Positions 2,462 through 10,494 of a DNA stretch of 10,494 nucleotides are shown here, piece after piece. The notes below the pieces were generated by a model. The model saw nothing but the letters and a program-made list of their open reading frames with translations. It was not told the DNA's origin and ran no database searches. The position numbers were made by a program, and so were the translations under genes. Numbering within the stretch: position 1 is the first letter of the stretch; each line of letters begins with the position of its first letter. The stretch comes from a virus: UHGV virus genome UHGV-1956501, one strand, 5' to 3'.

Positions 2462-3223
2462 ATGCGACGACTTATTATTATCTCCGGTGCTGGTTTGAGC
2501 GCTGAATCTGGTATTCCCACTTTCCGATCTGGTAGCACTGCAATGTGGGAGAATTTCAGCATCGATGAGGTGTGCAACATTCACACCTTTGCCAAGAACT
2601 ACTATAAGGTGCATGACTTTTACAATGCACGTCGTGTAGCTCTAGGCAGTGTTGAGCCTAACCTTGCACATCTTCGGATCGCTGAGTGGTATTCCCGCTG
2701 GTCTGGTCGTGTGATCAACATTACCACCAATGTGGATGATTTGCTGGAGCGTGCTGGTGTAAAACATGAAGATATTTTACATGTCCACGGGTATTTGCCA
2801 GAAATAGTCTATGAGGACGATGAAGGAAGTAACGTCATTAAGGACATTGGATACTCTGAGGTAGATGCAGAAAAGTATACCTGGGTTAAGCCTAATGTGG
2901 TGTTCTTCGGAGAAGTAGCTCCGAAGTATACAGACATGTACGACCTGTTGACTTCCCTTACGAGTAATGATATGGTTATCCTTGTAGGGTGTTCCAACAC
3001 AGTTATCAATTTTAACTGGGAGCTATTCCCTGCCTGCAATAAGGGAACCAAGCTGCTGATCGTTAACAAATACGACTCACAGCATCTAGAGGAGAATGGC
3101 ATTTCACGTAGTGATATTTACCAATATGAGGATCGCGGCATCCCAGTTTGGTTTAACGGGGCGGTTGATGCTTTCTCTGATAAAACATTCATTGAGACCG
3201 TAGAAAACTTTATGGAACTTTAA
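2462..3223 (+). CDS. Sir2-family protein (sirtuin-like NAD-dependent deacylase / ADP-ribosyltransferase / NADase), no zinc ribbon
   Basis: Sirtuin Rossmann motifs: ISGAGLSAESGIPTFRS (GAG-x-S-x-x-SGIP-x-FR), ITTNVDDL (TQN-x-D-x-L-like), LHVHG (catalytic His-Gly), VVFFGE (FGE), ILVGCSNTV. No CxxC...CxxC zinc-binding module is present. Confidence 0.85.
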   Translation: MRRLIIISGAGLSAESGIPTFRSGSTAMWENFSIDEVCNIHTFAKNYYKVHDFYNARRVALGSVEPNLAHLRIAEWYSRWSGRVINITTNVDDLLERAGVKHEDILHVHGYLPEIVYEDDEGSNVIKDIGYSEVDAEKYTWVKPNVVFFGEVAPKYTDMYDLLTSLTSNDMVILVGCSNTVINFNWELFPACNKGTKLLIVNKYDSQHLEENGISRSDIYQYEDRGIPVWFNGAVDAFSDKTFIETVENFMEL

Positions 3224-3236
3224 AAGGAGACCTTTA

Positions 3237-3950
3237 ATGCTGAATACCAAATTAATTGACAACCTGGAAAAACTGTCCCAACCTGAAAACTACCTTTGGT
3301 CTGCCAACTGGGTGGAAAACTGGAACCGTGTGGCAGCTAAAGTGAAAAAATCATACACACCATTCGAATTACAGCTTAGCTTCATTGAGGAAGAGTTCAA
3401 TGAAGTTTTGGAAGAGCTGGAGAAAGGTGATGGTGGAGATCACCTGCTAAAAGAGGCCTGCGATCTTCACGTTGTCACAAGTTATGCCGCTTATCTTGTT
3501 AATGATAATCACGAAAAGTGGTCAAACCTGTTTGATAATCCACGAGGCCTTAAGTTCAAGATCGGTGAGTTCTATGATACCCTGATCGCTGCGAAAAACA
3601 CCTCCAAGCAAAAAGCGTCCGCTTACCGCTTAGCAGAGTTGTCAACAGCTTTGCTGTTCCAGCTTCGCGGCGATGTGTGCGGGATGATGCGTAAGGTTCT
3701 CAAATCGAATGACAGCAAGTTTGCACGGGTCAACCATCTACGGTATTCACACGGTGCCAGTGCAGATATGCCTGCTGAACAACTCATCGAGTTGGAGATT
3801 AAAGATCTTGAGCGGCGCTTTGATGGTCGATATGAAGGTTTTGTTGCTAAGGAAGAATTCTACAACGGTAATAAAGTTATCATATTCCTTGACAGTAAAG
3901 GTAAGATCATGAAGCCTTCGAGCTTCAAGGATGTAACAGAGTATATTTAA
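3237..3950 (+). CDS. Hypothetical protein; possible all-alpha NTP pyrophosphohydrolase (MazG/HisE-like) N-terminal domain
   Basis: AGGAG Shine-Dalgarno (3225-3229) before ATG 3237. Acidic helix pattern SFIEEEFNEVLEELEKGDGGDHLLKEACDLHVV resembles the E-x-x-E...E-x-x-D metal-binding helices of MazG-like enzymes; assignment is tentative. Confidence 0.5.
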   Translation: MLNTKLIDNLEKLSQPENYLWSANWVENWNRVAAKVKKSYTPFELQLSFIEEEFNEVLEELEKGDGGDHLLKEACDLHVVTSYAAYLVNDNHEKWSNLFDNPRGLKFKIGEFYDTLIAAKNTSKQKASAYRLAELSTALLFQLRGDVCGMMRKVLKSNDSKFARVNHLRYSHGASADMPAEQLIELEIKDLERRFDGRYEGFVAKEEFYNGNKVIIFLDSKGKIMKPSSFKDVTEYI

Positions 3951-3956
3951 CAACAT

Positions 3957-3985
3957 AGCCGGGATTACCCGGCTTTACTTGTTGT
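3957..3985 (+). terminator. Putative rho-independent terminator
   Basis: GC-rich hairpin AGCCGGG-atta-CCCGGCT (7-bp stem, 4-nt loop, 3957-3974) followed by T-rich TTACTTGTTGT, directly after the 3237..3950 stop. Confidence 0.5.
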
Positions 3986-4013
3986 GGAAAGTATGCAAGT
4001 GAGGAAGATAGTT

Positions 4014-4322
4014 ATGTACAAGCACTCTAGAGATCTTGAAAACGATGCTGTGTTTGGGGATCAGATGAAAGAGTTGGTTAAACTCATAGGCAGGATAGAG
4101 GATAAGTTTGACACTAAAATCTACATCGACAGCAAAGTATTCAACCACAAAATATGGACAAATCTGTGTGTTGGACTACATGGAGATAAAGATGTGGTAA
4201 ATTTAGTTGTAATTAAGTTCATAGTGTGGCAGAATAAAACTATAAATTATTACGATCCACACCTACTTGTTTACCCGATAAAAGACCTATTAGATAAGGA
4301 GGACTGCAATGCCGTTATTTAA
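4014..4322 (+). CDS. Hypothetical protein
   Basis: Longest ORF starts at GTG 3984; in-frame ATGs at 3993 and 4014. ATG 4014 has the best Shine-Dalgarno (GAGGAAG, 4001-4007). No recognisable motifs. Confidence 0.45.
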   Translation: MYKHSRDLENDAVFGDQMKELVKLIGRIEDKFDTKIYIDSKVFNHKIWTNLCVGLHGDKDVVNLVVIKFIVWQNKTINYYDPHLLVYPIKDLLDKEDCNAVI

Positions 4323-4578
4323 TCTTGCTAAACCTGTAGAAGCACACCAGTTTGACGGAAGCTCTTCATCAGTATCTGATCTGCAACGGTGGATTGATAC
4401 AGGTGTGTTTACATCGTCACCTGTTCGGACCAGAGATCTTCGTCGCATGTGTGAGCTTGTAGAGCCGTTTGGTAACCTAGTCTTGTACCAGGGAGATTGG
4501 TTAGTTGACTTTATGGGAGACTGGTTGGTAATGAGTAAAGAAGAGATGTTTAAAATTTTTAAGGAAGAGGCCGAGTAA
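4309..4578 (+). CDS. Hypothetical protein (89 aa)
   Basis: Strong Shine-Dalgarno AAGGAGG (4296-4302) 6 nt before ATG 4309; stop overlaps the downstream start (TAATG). No recognisable motifs. Confidence 0.55.
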   Translation: MPLFNLAKPVEAHQFDGSSSSVSDLQRWIDTGVFTSSPVRTRDLRRMCELVEPFGNLVLYQGDWLVDFMGDWLVMSKEEMFKIFKEEAE

Positions 4579-5861
4579 TGCATCAAATCAAAACAACACT
4601 GTACGCACTGAATAAAGATGGCAGCTACCAACAGTGGAAAGTATTCACGGATGGTGATAAGGTTATCGTAGAGTTTGGCAAGCTTGATGGTAAACTGCAA
4701 TACAAAGAGACGATCTGCACACCTAAGAACGTTGGTCGCGCCAATGAAACTACAGCTGAGCAACAGGCCGAGCTGGAAGCGATCAGTAAGTGGGAAAAAC
4801 AGGTCCGACTTGGGTACGTGGAGAGTATGGAAGATTGTGAGCAAGGTGTTGATCTTCTACCCATGTTGGTGCATGACTACCTGAAGCGTGGCAAGGCACT
4901 TAAATTACCTTGCTGGATCTTGCGTAAGTTAGATGGCCTTCGTCTACTTGTTGTTTTCCAGAATGGTGAGCCTAAATTTATTTCCCGTGGTAATAAGTCC
5001 TACCCTATTCAAGGAAAGCTTCTGGAGCAACTTCGCTCTTTCCACCTAACCACCGGGATTAAACAGCTCGACGGAGAGCTCTATATTCATGGTCTTCCTC
5101 TGCAGAAAATAGTGTCTCTTGCTAAACGGTGGCGCACACAGGAAGAAATTCAGGCCGAGATCGATAAAGACTACAAGGCAGATAAAAAACGCCGTCAGGC
5201 TGCGATTAAGGCAGGTTTAGCAACATACAAAAACTTCAACAAGATGGACATTCCTGTTGATGTTGAGCCTGTTCGTGATGATTTGCGTTACGGAGGGTAC
5301 TGCAGCTACGATCTGGAGTATCACATTTTTGATATTCCTAGCGACAAGGTGTGGTGGGATCCAGAAACAGAGTCTGGACGCTGCAAGGATCTTATGGATG
5401 CAGAGGATACCGTTACCACTCTGATGCTTGACCATATCAAGGTTGTTGACGCAGAGCTTGCGTACACAGTTGATCATTGCGAAGAATCTGTTGGTATATT
5501 CATGTCCGAAGGATATGAAGGTACTATCATGCGTAATTTCTGCGGTAAATACGAGTACGGTCAGCGAACATCTGAAGCATTGAAATGGAAAAAGTTCAAC
5601 GACGCAGAGGTGAAAGTTATTGACGTTGAGAAAGATAAGAATGACGAAGGTGTTCTTATCTGTGTTGACAAGGAAGGTGTTGTTGTTAAAATGAAGATGA
5701 AAGGTACGCACGAGGAGCGTAGCTATGACAGGATGCAGGAAATGATCGGAAAGTTCGTCACCTTCAAATATCAAGCAAGGACAGAAGACAACAACTACCA
5801 ATTCCCTGTCGGTATCTGCGTCCGAAATGTTAACCCAGATACTTGGGAGGTTCTGGAATGA
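4578..5861 (+). CDS. ATP-dependent DNA ligase with about 115-aa N-terminal extension
   Basis: Covalent nucleotidyltransferase motifs in order: motif I ILRKLDGLRLLVV (K-x-D-G-x-R) with downstream ISRGNK, motif III LDGELYIHG, motif IV EGTIMRN, motif V LKWKKF, C-terminal OB-like region. ATG overlaps upstream stop (TAATG). Confidence 0.8.
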   Translation: MHQIKTTLYALNKDGSYQQWKVFTDGDKVIVEFGKLDGKLQYKETICTPKNVGRANETTAEQQAELEAISKWEKQVRLGYVESMEDCEQGVDLLPMLVHDYLKRGKALKLPCWILRKLDGLRLLVVFQNGEPKFISRGNKSYPIQGKLLEQLRSFHLTTGIKQLDGELYIHGLPLQKIVSLAKRWRTQEEIQAEIDKDYKADKKRRQAAIKAGLATYKNFNKMDIPVDVEPVRDDLRYGGYCSYDLEYHIFDIPSDKVWWDPETESGRCKDLMDAEDTVTTLMLDHIKVVDAELAYTVDHCEESVGIFMSEGYEGTIMRNFCGKYEYGQRTSEALKWKKFNDAEVKVIDVEKDKNDEGVLICVDKEGVVVKMKMKGTHEERSYDRMQEMIGKFVTFKYQARTEDNNYQFPVGICVRNVNPDTWEVLE

Positions 5862-5987
5862 TGTAGGAAGGTTTAGTAGGTAACGGTAGCCAATTGAATG
5901 ATGGTTTTTCAAAATTGTCACCTATATAACCACACTATGCAGTGTTGTTGATCTGGTTAATTATGAGTAAACTGGAGAGTATGAAAA

Positions 5988-6485
5988 ATGAAACTTGATA
6001 AAAATGTTCAACGAAAAGCTTTCTTGGATCTTATTGGCTGGGCAGAGGGAACAACAACCCCCCCTGCCACCAAATGTGGAGGATACGATGTTGTAGCATA
6101 CGGGATGGACGGAAAACCTGAAATCTTTACAGATTTTTCTACGCACCCTTTTGCAAACGGTCGCCCTGGTAAAGTGTTTAACTCAAAAGGGCAAAGAACT
6201 ACAGCCTGCGGTAAATATCAATTTCTTGTCAAATACTGGGAACACTACAAAAAACAGCTTAAGTTGCCGGATTTTGGACCAGACAGTCAGGATAAGTGGG
6301 CGATCCAGTTGATCAGGGAACGTAAAGCACTTGAAGATATAGATAACGGTCATATTAAATCTGCTATACGTAAGACCTCAAATATTTGGGCTTCGTTCCC
6401 CTACAACCAGTACGACCAAAATCCAAAAACCATTGACAAGTTGCTTAAGAAATTTGTAGAGTTTGGAGGTGTTGTTCTGGATTAA
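5988..6485 (+). CDS. Endolysin, lambda R-type lytic transglycosylase
   Basis: Near-collinear matches to lambda R as recalled: QRKAFLD, GWAEGT, GYDV, FTDFS-HP, GKYQF, YWEHYKKQLKLPDFGPDSQD, IRERKAL, SNIWASFP, FGG. GGAGA Shine-Dalgarno 8 nt before ATG. Confidence 0.9.
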   Translation: MKLDKNVQRKAFLDLIGWAEGTTTPPATKCGGYDVVAYGMDGKPEIFTDFSTHPFANGRPGKVFNSKGQRTTACGKYQFLVKYWEHYKKQLKLPDFGPDSQDKWAIQLIRERKALEDIDNGHIKSAIRKTSNIWASFPYNQYDQNPKTIDKLLKKFVEFGGVVLD

Positions 6486-6492
6486 TGATTAA

Positions 6493-6515
6493 AAGGTAGG
6501 CCACTCGCCTACCTT
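6493..6515. other. Stem-loop (9-bp stem AAGGTAGGC / GCCTACCTT, loop CACTC) after the endolysin stop
   Basis: Read directly. On the plus strand it is not followed by a U-tract; the A-run before it would give a U-tract on the minus strand. Possible weak or bidirectional terminator or RNA-processing site. Confidence 0.25.
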
Positions 6516-6539
6516 GCTACACCAGAGGTGTGTTGAGAT

Positions 6540-7301
6540 ATGACGATACATTTCTTTTTCAATGATCACTACCCTTATTGGTACAAGGATGGTGATCTAA
6601 TCTTTTGGAAACCTGGCTGCAGTAGGAATGGAAATAGGGCTGGACACTACAACAAAAAGACTGGATATTTCCAAGTGTACAATAAGCTGACAAATGTTAA
6701 ACGTGGCAGACATAGGGAAATTTTTGACATGTTTTACGGATGTGTCACAGATACTTGGCATATTGATCATATTATCTCTAAGAAAAATTCTACTAACGGA
6801 GTGCCTGTAGACAAGATAGAAAACCTTCAAATGTTGAAGCCTTGGGATAACTACTGTAAGAGAGCCTTGGAAAATGTGCAAAGCAATAACACCTCTACAG
6901 TGACTGGTGTGGTATGGCTGAAAAGAGAGGGTAAGTGGAGGGCAAGTAGAAGGATAAATAGGGTAAATGTTAGGTTGGGAGATTTTGACACTTTCGAAGA
7001 GGCTAAGTCTAGGGTTGAATGGTCAATAGCCAACCCGGAAGAGGCTTTAAAGATAGTTCCAAACCCGCACAAGAATAATATCCTGCCAGGTATTGATTGG
7101 TCTAAGAAAGATACCTGTTGGAGGGCACGAGATAACAAAGGAAGAAACTTAAGGTGCTTCAACGACAGGAAGTGGCTAAACCCCTGGTGGGAGGCAGTTT
7201 GTGCAAGAAAGTCTTGGGAAGTAAACTGTCTCTACGGAGGAATGTCACTAACTGAGTGGAAGTTATCCAGAGGCTATCCAAGACCTTGTGTTGAGGATTG
7301 A
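6540..7301 (+). CDS. HNH homing endonuclease with AP2-type DNA-binding domain (free-standing)
   Basis: HNH core WHIDHIISKKNSTNGVPVDKIENLQMLKPWDN (H...N...N). Downstream AP2-like segment TGVVWLKREGKWRASRRINRVNVRLGDFDTFEEAKSRV. Inserted between endolysin and the next lysis-region gene, typical of mobile phage homing endonucleases. Confidence 0.85.
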   Translation: MTIHFFFNDHYPYWYKDGDLIFWKPGCSRNGNRAGHYNKKTGYFQVYNKLTNVKRGRHREIFDMFYGCVTDTWHIDHIISKKNSTNGVPVDKIENLQMLKPWDNYCKRALENVQSNNTSTVTGVVWLKREGKWRASRRINRVNVRLGDFDTFEEAKSRVEWSIANPEEALKIVPNPHKNNILPGIDWSKKDTCWRARDNKGRNLRCFNDRKWLNPWWEAVCARKSWEVNCLYGGMSLTEWKLSRGYPRPCVED

Positions 7302-7364: not shown

Positions 7365-7571
7365 ATGAAAGATTTTCTGTTGGCAATTTTGTTCATGGCA
7401 GCATGTCTGGCCTGTGGTGTCGTGTTTGCAGGTGAAACAGCGTATCTTGTCGATGTATATCGGGACAATGGTAAACGTATTTGCCTTTATGAGACAAGCC
7501 AAGGTGAGCTCTACGAGCTTGTGAAACAAGGCGAGGCAGGTTCCTGCCCTCGCACCCATTTCTTTGAATAA
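7365..7571 (+). CDS. Small secreted or membrane-anchored protein (68 aa) with N-terminal signal/TM segment and two Cys in the mature part
   Basis: N-terminus MKDFLLAILFMAACLACGVVFAG is a hydrophobic signal-like segment (possible cleavage after VFA; non-canonical lipobox). Own promoter and Shine-Dalgarno. Sits in the lysis-type region. Confidence 0.6.
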   Translation: MKDFLLAILFMAACLACGVVFAGETAYLVDVYRDNGKRICLYETSQGELYELVKQGEAGSCPRTHFFE

Positions 7572-7580
7572 GGAGGATAC

Positions 7581-8045
7581 GTGGAAGACGGACGTTTAAT
7601 GAAGTCTGAACGCAGGCTTATTGTGCAACTGATCCCAGAAACAGCTTGGTATAATAACCTCCGAAACGCTGTAAAGAAGAGTGAGTGGGATAAGATCCGC
7701 AAGAAGTGCTATAAAGAAGCCAACTACACCTGTGAGGTGTGCGGCGGTAAAGGCAGCAAACACCCAGTGGAGTGTCATGAACTTTACACTTTCGAAGAGG
7801 GAGTGATCCGGCTTGTCGGACTGATAGCGTTGTGCCCAGATTGTCACACATCTGTGCATCCTGGGTTAGCAAATATCCGTGGAAAGTATGCTCAGGCAGT
7901 TAGTCAGTTGGCTAAGGTGAATAAGATCACCAAGGGTATGGCAGAGGCGTATTACCGAGACTGCTTTGCAGAGTGGCGTGAGCTTAGTAAAGTTCCAGAA
8001 TGGAAGACTGACTTTTCGTGGATAGAGGGTTACCTTGATGGCTAA
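7581..8045 (+). CDS. Zinc-binding His-Me-finger (HNH / EndoVII / NinG-like) protein, putative nuclease
   Basis: AGGAGG Shine-Dalgarno (7571-7576) 4 nt before GTG 7581. Motif CEVCGG-x6-HPVECHE-x-LCPDCH-x-x-x-H resembles the CxxC...H...CxxC-H arrangement of beta-beta-alpha-Me nucleases. Nuclease activity is inferred. Confidence 0.55.
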   Translation: MEDGRLMKSERRLIVQLIPETAWYNNLRNAVKKSEWDKIRKKCYKEANYTCEVCGGKGSKHPVECHELYTFEEGVIRLVGLIALCPDCHTSVHPGLANIRGKYAQAVSQLAKVNKITKGMAEAYYRDCFAEWRELSKVPEWKTDFSWIEGYLDG

Positions 8046-8328
8046 GAAACCTTTAAAAGAGAAATTTGATAAGACAGCTTTTGTATTCGATACACCTCTG
8101 GACGACATCATCAGAGGTATGCAATCCTTGTATCGGAAGGCTGAATCTGAGCAGTTGTCTGAATCAGAACTTTACTGGCTTTGTTGGTGGGAGTTAAACC
8201 TGCCTAAAGCTGAAAGTTCTTGTCTGAGAACTGTTAAAACGTGCGCCCAAGAAAACGCTGCACTTGGAATCTACCACAAAAGGAAAAGATCAACAAAAAT
8301 CTCTCCAAGAAAGACCAAAAAGTCTTGA
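8038..8328 (+). CDS. Hypothetical protein with strongly basic C-terminal tail
   Basis: ATG 8038 overlaps the upstream stop (ATGGCTAA). C-terminus YHKRKRSTKISPRKTKKS is Lys/Arg-rich. No homology recognised; could be spurious. Confidence 0.4.
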   Translation: MAKKPLKEKFDKTAFVFDTPLDDIIRGMQSLYRKAESEQLSESELYWLCWWELNLPKAESSCLRTVKTCAQENAALGIYHKRKRSTKISPRKTKKS

Positions 8329-8354
8329 CAAAAGTGTTATTAATCTGATATTAT
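8325..8354 (+). promoter_or_regulatory. Strong sigma70 promoter (TTGACA-N18-TGaTATTAT, extended -10)
   Basis: Perfect -35 TTGACA (8325-8330), 18-nt spacer, -10 TATTAT (8349-8354) preceded by TGa; then AGGAG Shine-Dalgarno (8375-8379) and ATG 8388. A GATATC-centred palindrome (about 8359-8366) lies near the predicted transcription start. Confidence 0.7.
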
Positions 8355-8387
8355 CGGTCAGATATCTATAAACTAGGAGAACTAGAT

Positions 8388-8696
8388 ATGCTTAAAATTT
8401 TTATTGTTGAAGATAAAGATATTGTCCAGTTGTATGCAAACGAGAATCATAAAGGTATGATTCTGAAGAAGGCAAGCAACCTTCATGAAAACACAATTCA
8501 ACCTGGCGATGTAATTAAGATCTGTGGTTATATGATATCAGACTCCTTGATGAAAATAACCCACCACTGGGGGTCTAATCCGTTCCTTTTTGAAAAGTAT
8601 TGGGATGTTGAGTCACTTATTGCAGAGAGTGATGATGCATTCCATTACAGCATCCAACCATCTTGCAGAATAACTAACAGGAGGGTCTTTGAGTAG
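8388..8696 (+). CDS. Hypothetical protein (102 aa), first gene after the strong promoter
   Basis: ATG with good Shine-Dalgarno spacing (8 nt) directly downstream of the consensus promoter. No motifs recognised. Confidence 0.6.
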   Translation: MLKIFIVEDKDIVQLYANENHKGMILKKASNLHENTIQPGDVIKICGYMISDSLMKITHHWGSNPFLFEKYWDVESLIAESDDAFHYSIQPSCRITNRRVFE

Positions 8697-9828
8697 AGAA
8701 TATCCACTTATTGAGTCCATAGATTGTCTGGCTGATCTTCTTGAACCTGACGCTATAGTTTATTATGACTTCGATCAGGTTGCATATCAAGCTGCAGCAA
8801 GTTGTGAAAAAAGGACAATTGAGGTAACACACAAAGCCTCCGGACGTAAGAAGATGTTTAAAACACGAACAGAGTTCTGGGGTCGGCAGAAGAACACCGT
8901 TGGTGGTTGGTTAAAAGCTGAGAATACCAACCGTGAAGCCGCATGTAAAAAGTCTGGTAAGGAGTTTATTCCGTGGACACGTGAAGATTTTGATGTCTTG
9001 GATATCCAAACACCTGACCCTGTAGAGAACTGCTTGCACACAATAAAATGTAAGGCAAATGCAGTTCTTAACTATCTTGGTATTCCGGAAGAGCGATGTG
9101 TCGGGGTGTTGGGAGGAACAGGTAACTTCAGACTAGATCTTCCAATGCCGGAAAGATACAAAGCCAACCGTAACAATACCCTTCGACCACTGCTGCTTGG
9201 AGATGCAAGACAGTATCTCCAAAAGCAGTATAATGCTCAAGTGATCAACGGTATCGAGGCTGACGACTGGTTAGCTATCCAGCAATTTGAAGGTTGGAAC
9301 CACTACCAAAAAACAGGTAAGTTCAACAAGTTTATTATCTCTATTGATAAGGACCAAAGAACACTGCCGGGGCTTGTGTTCGATCCCATGCGAAACGATA
9401 AGGGAGATTTTGTAAGGGAAACCCCTATGCTGATCGATAACGGTATGGGGAACATCTTCATGAAGCCTAATGGAGAGGTTGGTGGTTACGGAATGCTGTT
9501 CTTCGGATACCAAATGCTGTGTGGTGACTCTGCCGACAATATCAAGCCGTATCAAGGACTTATCGGTAAGGGTAAGTTCGGGGATGCCTCAGCATTCTAC
9601 CTACTGTCTCAGTGCAGCACTCCAAAGGAGATGTGGGTGGCTATTATTGATCAGTACAAGAAGTGGTTCCCGAAAGGTGTTGTTAAGTATACTGACTTCA
9701 ATGGTGTTGATCGTAGAATTTCCGTAGGTCAATGGATGAGTATAATTTTTGACTGTTTGTATATGAAGCGAACATTCAATGATCAAACAAAACTTGTTAA
9801 CGTTCTTAGAAATGTTGGAGCAATTTGA
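8689..9828 (+). CDS. rnh: FEN-family 5'-3' exonuclease / T4 RNase H-like nuclease
   Basis: N-terminal YYDFDQVAY (compare T4 RNase H LIDFSQIAL), GIEADDWLAI (compare EADDHIAV in T4 RNase H and EADDMAAY in T5 D15), and GDSADNIKPYQGLIGKG (compare GD-x-x-DNI...GIG-x-K helix-hairpin-helix motif). Comparisons are from memory. Start is TTG 8689, 4 nt after AGGAGG (8679-8684). At 379 aa it is longer than T4 RNase H. Confidence 0.7.
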   Translation: MSREYPLIESIDCLADLLEPDAIVYYDFDQVAYQAAASCEKRTIEVTHKASGRKKMFKTRTEFWGRQKNTVGGWLKAENTNREAACKKSGKEFIPWTREDFDVLDIQTPDPVENCLHTIKCKANAVLNYLGIPEERCVGVLGGTGNFRLDLPMPERYKANRNNTLRPLLLGDARQYLQKQYNAQVINGIEADDWLAIQQFEGWNHYQKTGKFNKFIISIDKDQRTLPGLVFDPMRNDKGDFVRETPMLIDNGMGNIFMKPNGEVGGYGMLFFGYQMLCGDSADNIKPYQGLIGKGKFGDASAFYLLSQCSTPKEMWVAIIDQYKKWFPKGVVKYTDFNGVDRRISVGQWMSIIFDCLYMKRTFNDQTKLVNVLRNVGAI

Positions 9829-10160
9829 TGACTAAAAATTCTGTAGATAGTGCAATTATGGAAGCTGTTTTTGAGGATGATCATACAACAGGGACACTTA
9901 AAACAAAAAATACATTCGTTGTTGCCACAGGTATGTGGCGGTTGTATGAAGATGACACCATTTCATACATCCTGTACACTGATGATTACGCAGATGACCG
10001 TGTATGGTCTGCTGTTTTAAAAGAGGATTGTGAACTGATTGAGGGCGAGCGGTTATGCATGTTCACCAGTGTGGAAACAGATGTTAAGCTTTGCTCTCTC
10101 GTCTTGTTCAAAGATAAGGCTTATGCTCCTGATGAAGGAGAGGAGGATGAGGAAGTATGA
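9828..10160 (+). CDS. Hypothetical acidic protein with Asp/Glu-rich C-terminal tail
   Basis: ATG 9828 overlaps the upstream stop (TGATG). C-terminus PDEGEEDEEV; Asp/Glu are frequent throughout. Function unknown. Confidence 0.55.
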   Translation: MTKNSVDSAIMEAVFEDDHTTGTLKTKNTFVVATGMWRLYEDDTISYILYTDDYADDRVWSAVLKEDCELIEGERLCMFTSVETDVKLCSLVLFKDKAYAPDEGEEDEEV

Positions 10161-10494
10161 GAGAGCGTCTATTATCCATAGACCAGTCGTTGACACACAC
10201 AGCTTGCGTTGTATGGGACGATGGAAAGCCTGTTCATAAGGTTGTGTTACGAACTCAAAGCTCATCTGCAAAAGAGAAGAAACCAGGGACGGTTTCTTTT
10301 GCAACAGCTGCTGAGCGTATTAACTGGATCTGCAAACAGGTCAGATATTATATCCACACGCACGGAGTTGACACCGTGGTTATGGAAGGACTTTCCTTCG
10401 GATCTCGCGGGGATGCCACACGTGAACTGGCTGGGTTGTTTTACGGTCTCGAAGTTATGCTTTGGGATGCTTTAGCTGATTGTGAAAATGACGG
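10157..10494 (+). CDS. RuvC-like Holliday junction resolvase, 5' partial (runs off window end)
   Basis: Not in the supplied ORF track because it has no stop inside the window. Hand translation from ATG 10157 (ATGA overlap with upstream stop) is open to 10494: MRERLLSIDQSLTHTACVVWDDGKPV...VDTVVMEGLSFGSRGDATRELAGLFYGLEV, with an RuvC-like N-terminal I-D-x-S/G and the conserved Glu in VVMEG. Confidence 0.6.
   Translation, partial: MRERLLSIDQSLTHTACVVWDDGKPVHKVVLRTQSSSAKEKKPGTVSFATAAERINWICKQVRYYIHTHGVDTVVMEGLSFGSRGDATRELAGLFYGLEVMLWDALADCEND

Follow-up and report, generated by a model that had tools for sequence, protein, structure and literature searches.

A conserved DNA-processing gene block of rV5-like coliphages encoding a FEN-type exonuclease with an insertion, a small acidic protein and a RuvC-like putative resolvase

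The virus genome UHGV-1956501, a stretch of 10,494 nucleotides that was analyzed as a whole and is called the window here, carries towards its 3' end three consecutive plus-strand genes that encode a nuclease of the FEN superfamily, a small acidic protein and a RuvC-like putative junction resolvase (Table 1). An initial annotation, made from the sequence alone, had described these three open reading frames (ORFs) as one coupled block, and both the ORFs and their overlaps were found in place. At the first junction the stop codon of the nuclease gene (TGA, 9826-9828) overlaps the start of the small gene (ATG, 9828) as TGATG. At the second junction the stop codon of the small gene (TGA, 10158-10160) overlaps the start of the RuvC-like gene (ATG, 10157-10159) as ATGA, the arrangement that had been reported initially. 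Such close overlaps are frequent across the whole window, and those of the block are conserved in eight genera, apart from two in which the RuvC-like start lies just past the small gene. Minus-strand ORFs of the region are short and contained within the plus-strand genes, and neither Rfam families nor meaningful repeats or structured elements were found in the region. Searches of the encoded proteins against Pfam, NCBIfam and PADLOC gave no useful matches.

The 2.2-kb region is 98.6% identical to the Escherichia phages slur16, isim and JohannBauhin and to more than 100 further rV5-like genomes (Vequintavirus, Vequintavirinae), and the BASEL collection includes phages in which it is 98.5-98.6% identical to the window. 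GenBank records label the first gene 'putative exodeoxyribonuclease' or '5'-exonuclease', the acidic gene 'hypothetical protein', and the third gene 'RNaseH', 'RuvC-like Holliday junction resolvase' or hypothetical. Downstream of the RuvC-like gene, Vequintavirus records list an endonuclease VII, followed by a DNA polymerase exonuclease subunit. The block is a DNA-processing gene block conserved in rV5-like coliphages. It is largely ordinary: exonuclease and resolvase are members of known enzyme families, and over 100 near-identical phage genomes already have them annotated, so that the block itself adds little. Its uncharacterized features are the insertion in the FEN-type nuclease and the lineage-specific acidic protein.

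Table 1. Positions of the gene block and associated features in the window.
Feature	Position	Strand	Remarks
Sigma-70-type promoter	8325..8354	+	TTGACA, 18 nt spacer, TATTAT, TG extended -10; 11/12 consensus matches
102-aa ORF, 'transposase-like' in GenBank, phrog_14449	8388..8696	+	Opens the unit; 8-nt overlap of its stop with the nuclease start
379-aa FEN-superfamily 5'-3' exonuclease, T7 gp6 / phrog_107 type	8689..9828	+	TTG start; Shine-Dalgarno sequence AGGAGG at 8679-8684
Nuclease insertion, residues ~41-110 (~60-70 residues)	8809..9018	+	Between FEN helix 1 and helix 2
110-aa acidic protein, phrog_7583	9828..10160	+	Predicted N-terminal helix, small all-beta domain, disordered acidic tail
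DEGEEDEEV tail codons	10131..10157	+	Purine-rich GGAGAGGAGGATGAGGAAGT doubles as Shine-Dalgarno region of the RuvC-like gene
RuvC-like (RNase H-fold) putative junction resolvase, first 112 of 209 codons	10157..10494	+	Ends at the window edge

The nuclease matched the 'exonuclease' family phrog_107 with an E value of 5e-71 over residues 10-373, and its AlphaFold2 (AF2) model, built from 32 sequences, reached a predicted local distance difference test score (pLDDT) of 95. It shares the PIN-like alpha/beta core that is common to T5 exonuclease, T4 RNase H, ExoIX and FEN1. Together with the YKxNR and GD..DN motifs, these results agree with the initial annotation, which had placed the protein in the FEN family with T4 RNase H as comparator. 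T4 RNase H indeed belongs to the same superfamily, but it turned out to be the weakest sequence match and the most distant of three comparators: hhalign gave probabilities of 97% for T7 gp6 (E 7.8e-11), 87% for T5 D15 (E 4e-6) and 13% for T4 RNase H, and on these sequence comparisons the closest characterized relative therefore is T7 gp6. T7 gp6 (300 aa) is the best profile match among characterized enzymes and falls into the same PHROG. Common to both proteins are the motifs NFR/NWR...YKANR, E(A/G)DD, DKD and GD.(S/T)D as well as AAxxE after helix 1, and both genes lie in a DNA-metabolism region beside a gene for a small acidic protein. Pairwise BLAST of the two proteins was marginal (E 0.001), and the aspartate of 'FTD' in T7 is replaced in the window protein, which reads 'LGG'. 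The family profile of the nuclease also reached plastid 5'-3' exonuclease (E 3.8e-6) and the 5'-nuclease of Taq polymerase, and a PDB sequence search with the nuclease gave no match.

As a reference for the FEN carboxylates we used T5 D26, D68, E128, D130, D153, D155, D201, and D204. Seven of the eight have invariant counterparts in the nuclease family (D27, E190, D192, D220, D222, D280, and D283); D29, E40, R148, Y157, K158, and R161 are invariant as well. The N-terminal DxD strand pairs with T5 D26 and T4 D19, the arch motif ERYKANR, which contains Y157, K158, and R161, aligns with T5 EYKGNR, and the H3TH motif LCGDSADNI, which contains D280 and D283, aligns with T5 IMGDLGDNI. The segment of the helical arch is shorter than in T5 and T4 (~37 versus 47 residues), and a counterpart of T5 D68 is missing. 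D29 and E40 are invariant where this counterpart is missing, and from the alignment the carboxylate may have been relocated within the active site.

Homologues of the nuclease were detected in 2108 records of the phage collection, 1190 of them with a query coverage of at least 80%, and include phi92-like phages, ICP1, Pakpunavirus, Felix O1-like phages, and Autographiviridae. Many homologues have 360-380 aa, and judged by these sequences a protein of this length is the usual form in a large, annotated phage family (phrog_107). The Pfam domain PF02739 is carried only by distant homologues (P0059, P0060, P0064, P0066, P0069, and P0070); the distant homologues measure 317-333 aa.

With 379 aa, the nuclease exceeds T4 RNase H (305 aa, sequence verified against PDB 1tfr) by 74 residues, close to the ~70 residues stated initially, T5 D15 (PDB 1ut5) by 88 residues, and T7 gp6 by 79 residues, ~57 of which lie before the second core strand. 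While the N-terminal strand YYDFDQVAYQAAA pairs with LIDFSQIALSTAL of T4 and with T5, the next core helix is displaced in the hhalign alignments, from residue 50 in T5 and residue 47 in T4 to residue ~111-122 in the nuclease, the aligned core itself beginning at residues 115-122. The excess length therefore is a single insertion of ~60-70 residues. The alignment to T4 RNase H and T5 D15, which had been proposed as a check, located it at residues ~41-110, where ~65 residues stand in place of the short loop that joins helix 1 to helix 2 in these two enzymes, and it accounts for most of the extra length. Also the suspicion of an extra domain was borne out by the AF2 model, in which the insertion is predicted to be folded (pLDDT mostly 93-95, with a dip to ~85 at residues 61-70) into a beta-hairpin (40-57), a short helix, a long helix (73-89), and a strand (101-109). 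The hairpin and an RTEFWG motif are common to the whole gp6-like myovirus clade, and residues ~66-95 are absent from the 317-333-aa relatives. The segment is rich in Lys and Arg (16 K+R in 73 residues) and, searched alone against Pfam, had no match. Since FEN enzymes touch the DNA duplex in the helix 1-helix 2 region, the insertion would most likely be an added DNA-binding or wedge element.

A start codon called too far upstream could make the nuclease merely look enlarged, a caveat that the initial annotation had raised itself, and the start is indeed a TTG just 4 nt past AGGAGG. The alignment of homologues refutes this explanation, to which we give practically no weight: the next in-frame ATG corresponds to residue 56 within conserved sequence, the catalytic residues D27 and D29, invariant in 32 homologues, lie upstream of it, the N-terminus (M-x-x-YP...) is kept in orthologues of other genera with ATG, GTG or TTG at the same position, and the extra residues are internal and modelled at high confidence. 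Vequintavirus and Henunavirus start the gene with TTG, Seunavirus and Mydovirus with GTG and others with ATG, in each case after a good Shine-Dalgarno sequence; the non-ATG starts may tune the level of translation. To our knowledge, no structure has been solved for any member of the long-form phage exonuclease clade. The insertion may deserve modest follow-up, as it concerns a large FEN-type clade with a conserved folded insertion of ~65 residues and without one canonical aspartate, and a structure from this clade would show how the FEN core can be extended.

The third gene continues beyond the window, and the full protein in phage isim comprises 209 aa. It matched phrog_159 both as the fragment (E 2.2e-27) and at full length (E 3.3e-39). 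Residues D9, E77, D189, and D192 correspond to the D-E-D-D positions of RuvC (PF02075; E. coli RuvC, PDB 1hjr); they are invariant in five genera and at least 90% conserved in 19 diverse homologues, and only D9 and E77 lie inside the window. The C-terminal motif, D-[LY]-A-D-A, resembles D-A-A-D-A of RuvC. Neither the window fragment nor the full-length orthologue matched PF02075 directly, a PDB sequence search gave no match, and the hhalign comparison of the family with E. coli RuvC (sequence verified against 1hjr) was not significant (E 0.023). The link to RuvC is therefore drawn through intermediate homologues: 4 of the 19 match PF02075 (best E 1.8e-6), and homologues at 31% identity do so, while the window protein itself does not. 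At the level of the superfamily, the designation 'RuvC-like', as used initially, is justified by these sequence comparisons.

Unlike bacterial RuvC, the RuvC-like proteins of the window clade contain a lysine-rich insertion of ~45 residues (residues ~126-170, isim locus 6232-6366, 14 K+R in 45 residues), which is absent from homologues of 157-161 aa, several of which match the Pfam RuvC family. Past the 3' end of the window, two putative junction-resolving enzymes stand back to back (isim locus 5857-7043), the RuvC-like protein and a homologue of endonuclease VII (PF02945, E 1.4e-7). All Vequintavirinae examined have this apparently redundant pair.

The small gene starts at ATG 9828, as in GenBank records and as supported by the orthologues, and its product therefore has 110 aa; the length of 111 aa given initially counts an upstream TTG (9825). 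The acidic nature and the ending DEGEEDEEV had been described correctly. The protein has an isoelectric point of 4.09 and a net charge of -17.4, with 27 D+E versus 10 K+R, and even without the tail its charge is still about -10. It matched phrog_7583, a family of unknown function, at E 1.5e-56. The AF2 model, built from 12 sequences, had a pLDDT of 76 and predicts a helix at residues 6-22, a seven-stranded beta domain at residues 30-94 (pLDDT ~85-90), and a disordered tail at residues 104-110; no recognizable fold relatives were found for it.

The family of the acidic protein is small: a search of 5.8 billion proteins gave 7 clusters, and one of 1.84 billion proteins gave 11 representatives. 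Two of these 11, P0084 (3105 aa) and P0085 (1152 aa), are long repetitive proteins (HYR repeats and DUF4371 repeats, respectively) that were matched in many short stretches, and they were set aside as repeat or composition artefacts. By tblastn the gene was found in 191 phage records, all Vequintavirinae-like, and always flanked by the exonuclease and the RuvC-like gene. A second subtype occurs in Certrevirus (phiTE), Septuagintavirus (A7_1), an Acinetobacter phage, and an SSBI34-like contig; the two subtypes are linked by a collinear hhalign match (E 5e-4) and by a bridging member (E 2.6e-7). The nine positional orthologues that were compared all have 100-110 aa and a net charge of -9 to -17, and size, slot, and strong negative charge are kept despite divergence to ~20% identity. 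Conserved residues of the protein include W37, E74, L76, and T80. Outside the Vequintavirinae, no equivalent small acidic gene was found among the positional analogues in ESCO13, ICP1, PAK_P4, EC6, phiA009, S4-7, and L018.

Poor conservation of the acidic protein had been named as a finding that would refute the initial proposal. The dN/dS ratio (nonsynonymous to synonymous substitution rates) of the gene was 0.087 between the window and JEP1 and 0.078 between R7 and 4MG; by this measure it is under purifying selection, with size and charge kept and the tail variable. It evolves faster than the nuclease gene, with a dN of 0.033 versus 0.004 in the same phage pair. Between the window and JEP1, dS of the small gene (0.376, 91% nucleotide identity) is also about three times that of the adjacent nuclease gene (0.118, 97%), which suggests local recombination or a mosaic boundary. 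In ESCO13 (Phapecoctavirus; locus 2492-4566) an equally long nuclease is followed directly by the polymerase exonuclease subunit, with no acidic gene, RuvC-like gene or endonuclease VII gene in between. This assigns the acidic gene to a cassette with the RuvC-like gene, the endonuclease VII gene, and a small ORF, and not to the nuclease family. This cassette constitutes an insertion/deletion difference between Vequintavirinae and the related Phapecoctavirus.

The end of the small gene has a second task. A Shine-Dalgarno sequence (GGAG or GAGG) lies inside the tail codons in all eight genera examined (the window and seven others), ~6-14 nt from the downstream start. In six of these genera the small gene runs 4 to 20 nt into the RuvC-like gene, and in the other two the RuvC-like start lies just past the stop. 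A purine-rich ribosome-binding site in that frame encodes Glu, Gly, and Asp. Because the ribosome-binding site of the RuvC-like gene lies within the tail codons, part of the acidity of the tail follows from it, and the sequences suggest that the tail composition is at least partly dictated in this way. The tail is acidic in all orthologues but variable (DEGEEDEEV, HEEETV, SDEVDVG, NDE, AEDEDALTDD, NTEEGESA, SSEDAE), with a length of 3 to 14 residues and the endings EV, EA, VG, DE, DD, SA, and AE. No other part of the protein is less conserved; even the window and JEP1 differ there by an indel, and according to the model the tail is a disordered, poorly conserved appendage.

A strong candidate promoter for the block lies at 8325-8354, the top-scoring site within 7500-10494. 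The genome paper of rV5 describes host-type promoters, many of them with extended -10 regions (PMC3606486), and the site fits this description. From its sequence it probably starts the transcription unit that holds the block, inside which no convincing plus-strand terminator was found. The region would be part of a replication/recombination nuclease operon of an rV5-like myovirus, in which transcription starts from 8325-8354 and the overlapping genes are translated one after another. The nuclease gene would encode a FEN-fold, T7 gp6-type 5'-3' exonuclease or flap endonuclease which, by analogy with T7 gp6, T5 D15, and T4 RNase H, would most likely remove RNA primers and flaps and resect 5' ends in phage replication and recombination. 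The acidic protein, which the overlapping genes would make alongside its neighbors, may be an electrostatic partner, either an accessory factor or a brake, of a neighboring basic DNA-processing enzyme. To the explanation as a whole, an rV5-like nuclease operon with a FEN-type exonuclease and its insertion, an acidic protein and a RuvC-like resolvase, we assign a probability of roughly 0.6. For the acidic protein taken by itself, a role as electrostatic partner or regulator of one neighboring DNA enzyme is the reading we prefer, but tentatively and at less than even odds.

Several observations weigh against this interpretation. A literature search gave no functional or expression data on the three genes, and the window nuclease had no Pfam match at E values up to 1, neither to PF02739 nor to PF01367. 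T5 Asp68 (VLGD) aligns to a gap or to Gly (VLGG) in the nuclease (residues 142-144, 'LGG', window 9112-9120), and because this counterpart is missing, the alignment suggests that the geometry of the metal site may differ. The partner role draws solely on synteny, gene overlaps, and charge, and these may reflect vertical inheritance within one subfamily. Fusion (Rosetta-stone) proteins containing the acidic protein were not found in a profile search of 1.84 billion proteins, and distant phages with RuvC-like genes (L018, phiA009, S4-7) have no recognizable acidic homologue upstream of them.

About as likely as the partner role is that the small gene has no functional link to its neighbors and is a conserved lineage-specific gene, its tail being a side effect of the overlapping signals for translation of the RuvC-like gene. 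The Shine-Dalgarno sequence in the tail codons of all eight genera and the poor conservation of the tail would fit this, as would the tight gene overlaps throughout the window, and the co-occurrence of the genes is inseparable from shared ancestry. However, negative charge is distributed along the entire protein, beyond the tail, and persists in orthologues at ~20% identity. Across the subfamily the gene also remains between the same two neighbors, whereas the presence of flanking HNH genes varies.

The main rival that gives the acidic protein a different function, a DNA mimic directed against a host DNA-binding enzyme (RecBCD, a nucleoid or an SMC protein), appears unlikely to us. It is modelled on T7, in which gp5.9, an acidic inhibitor of RecBCD for which DNA mimicry has been described (PMC9836394), is encoded directly beside the gp6 exonuclease, its gene overlapping the 5' end of gene 6. 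The strong negative charge kept across diverging orthologues, the evolution of the gene at a faster rate than its neighbors, and its restriction to one lineage would suit such a role. Nevertheless, a PADLOC search of the block proteins gave no matches, and the low dN/dS gives no hint of an arms race when close relatives are compared. The window protein resembles gp5.9, Ocr, and ArdA in being small and strongly acidic, but no similarity to them in sequence or fold was detectable, its predicted structure being mostly beta with an N-terminal helix. Equally doubtful is a version that would join both ideas, in which the protein is an unrecognized small beta-fold inhibitor or DNA mimic that either checks the phage exonuclease and resolvase until the right substrate is present or blocks a host RecBCD-like end-processing enzyme, with selection acting on charge and not on sequence.

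Two further resemblances, both suggested by the initial annotation, did not hold. An anti-restriction protein of the Ocr/ArdA type, for which acidity and small size alone would speak, is very improbable, as there is no match in fold or sequence to Ocr or ArdA and the Vequintavirinae were described in the BASEL study, whose collection includes near-identical phages, as 'exceptionally susceptible' to restriction-modification systems and apparently without effective protection (PMC8594841), unlike what would be expected of a phage with Ocr/ArdA-type protection. A single-stranded DNA-binding (SSB) protein, or an SSB-like C-terminal tail that recruits replication proteins, deserves even less credence: the acidic disordered tail and the location among replication genes recall it, but the folded domain is strongly acidic (incompatible with binding of single-stranded DNA), no OB fold is present, and the tail, variable in length, has no conserved terminal motif comparable to DDDIPF or to the terminal F of T7 gp2.5.

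The acidic protein may merit modest follow-up, since it is confined to rV5-like phages and keeps its charge and slot despite fast sequence change. The rV5-like phages are a group used for biocontrol and therapy. Should the protein turn out to control a phage nuclease or to inhibit one of the host, it would represent a new small-protein regulator.

The 102-aa ORF at 8388-8696 had no transposase domain in Pfam or NCBIfam and gave a single weak match, to PRS2_N (E 0.005); on this sequence evidence, the label 'transposase-like' in GenBank and PHROGs looks like propagated annotation. Upstream of the block, HNH/homing-endonuclease genes (window 6540-7301 and 7581-8045) vary among phages that are nearly identical elsewhere. 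In phage isim, an HNH gene separates the lysin from a membrane protein (isim locus 2312-2995), and rV5_ev146 has none at that place (2000-2064), a presence/absence polymorphism typical of homing endonucleases. Finally, 20 records named 'Campylobacter phage' (e.g., MG065635.1 and MG065653.1; host C. jejuni) are ~98.6% identical in this region to E. coli rV5-like phages; either the host label is probably wrong or these isolates are coliphage contaminants.

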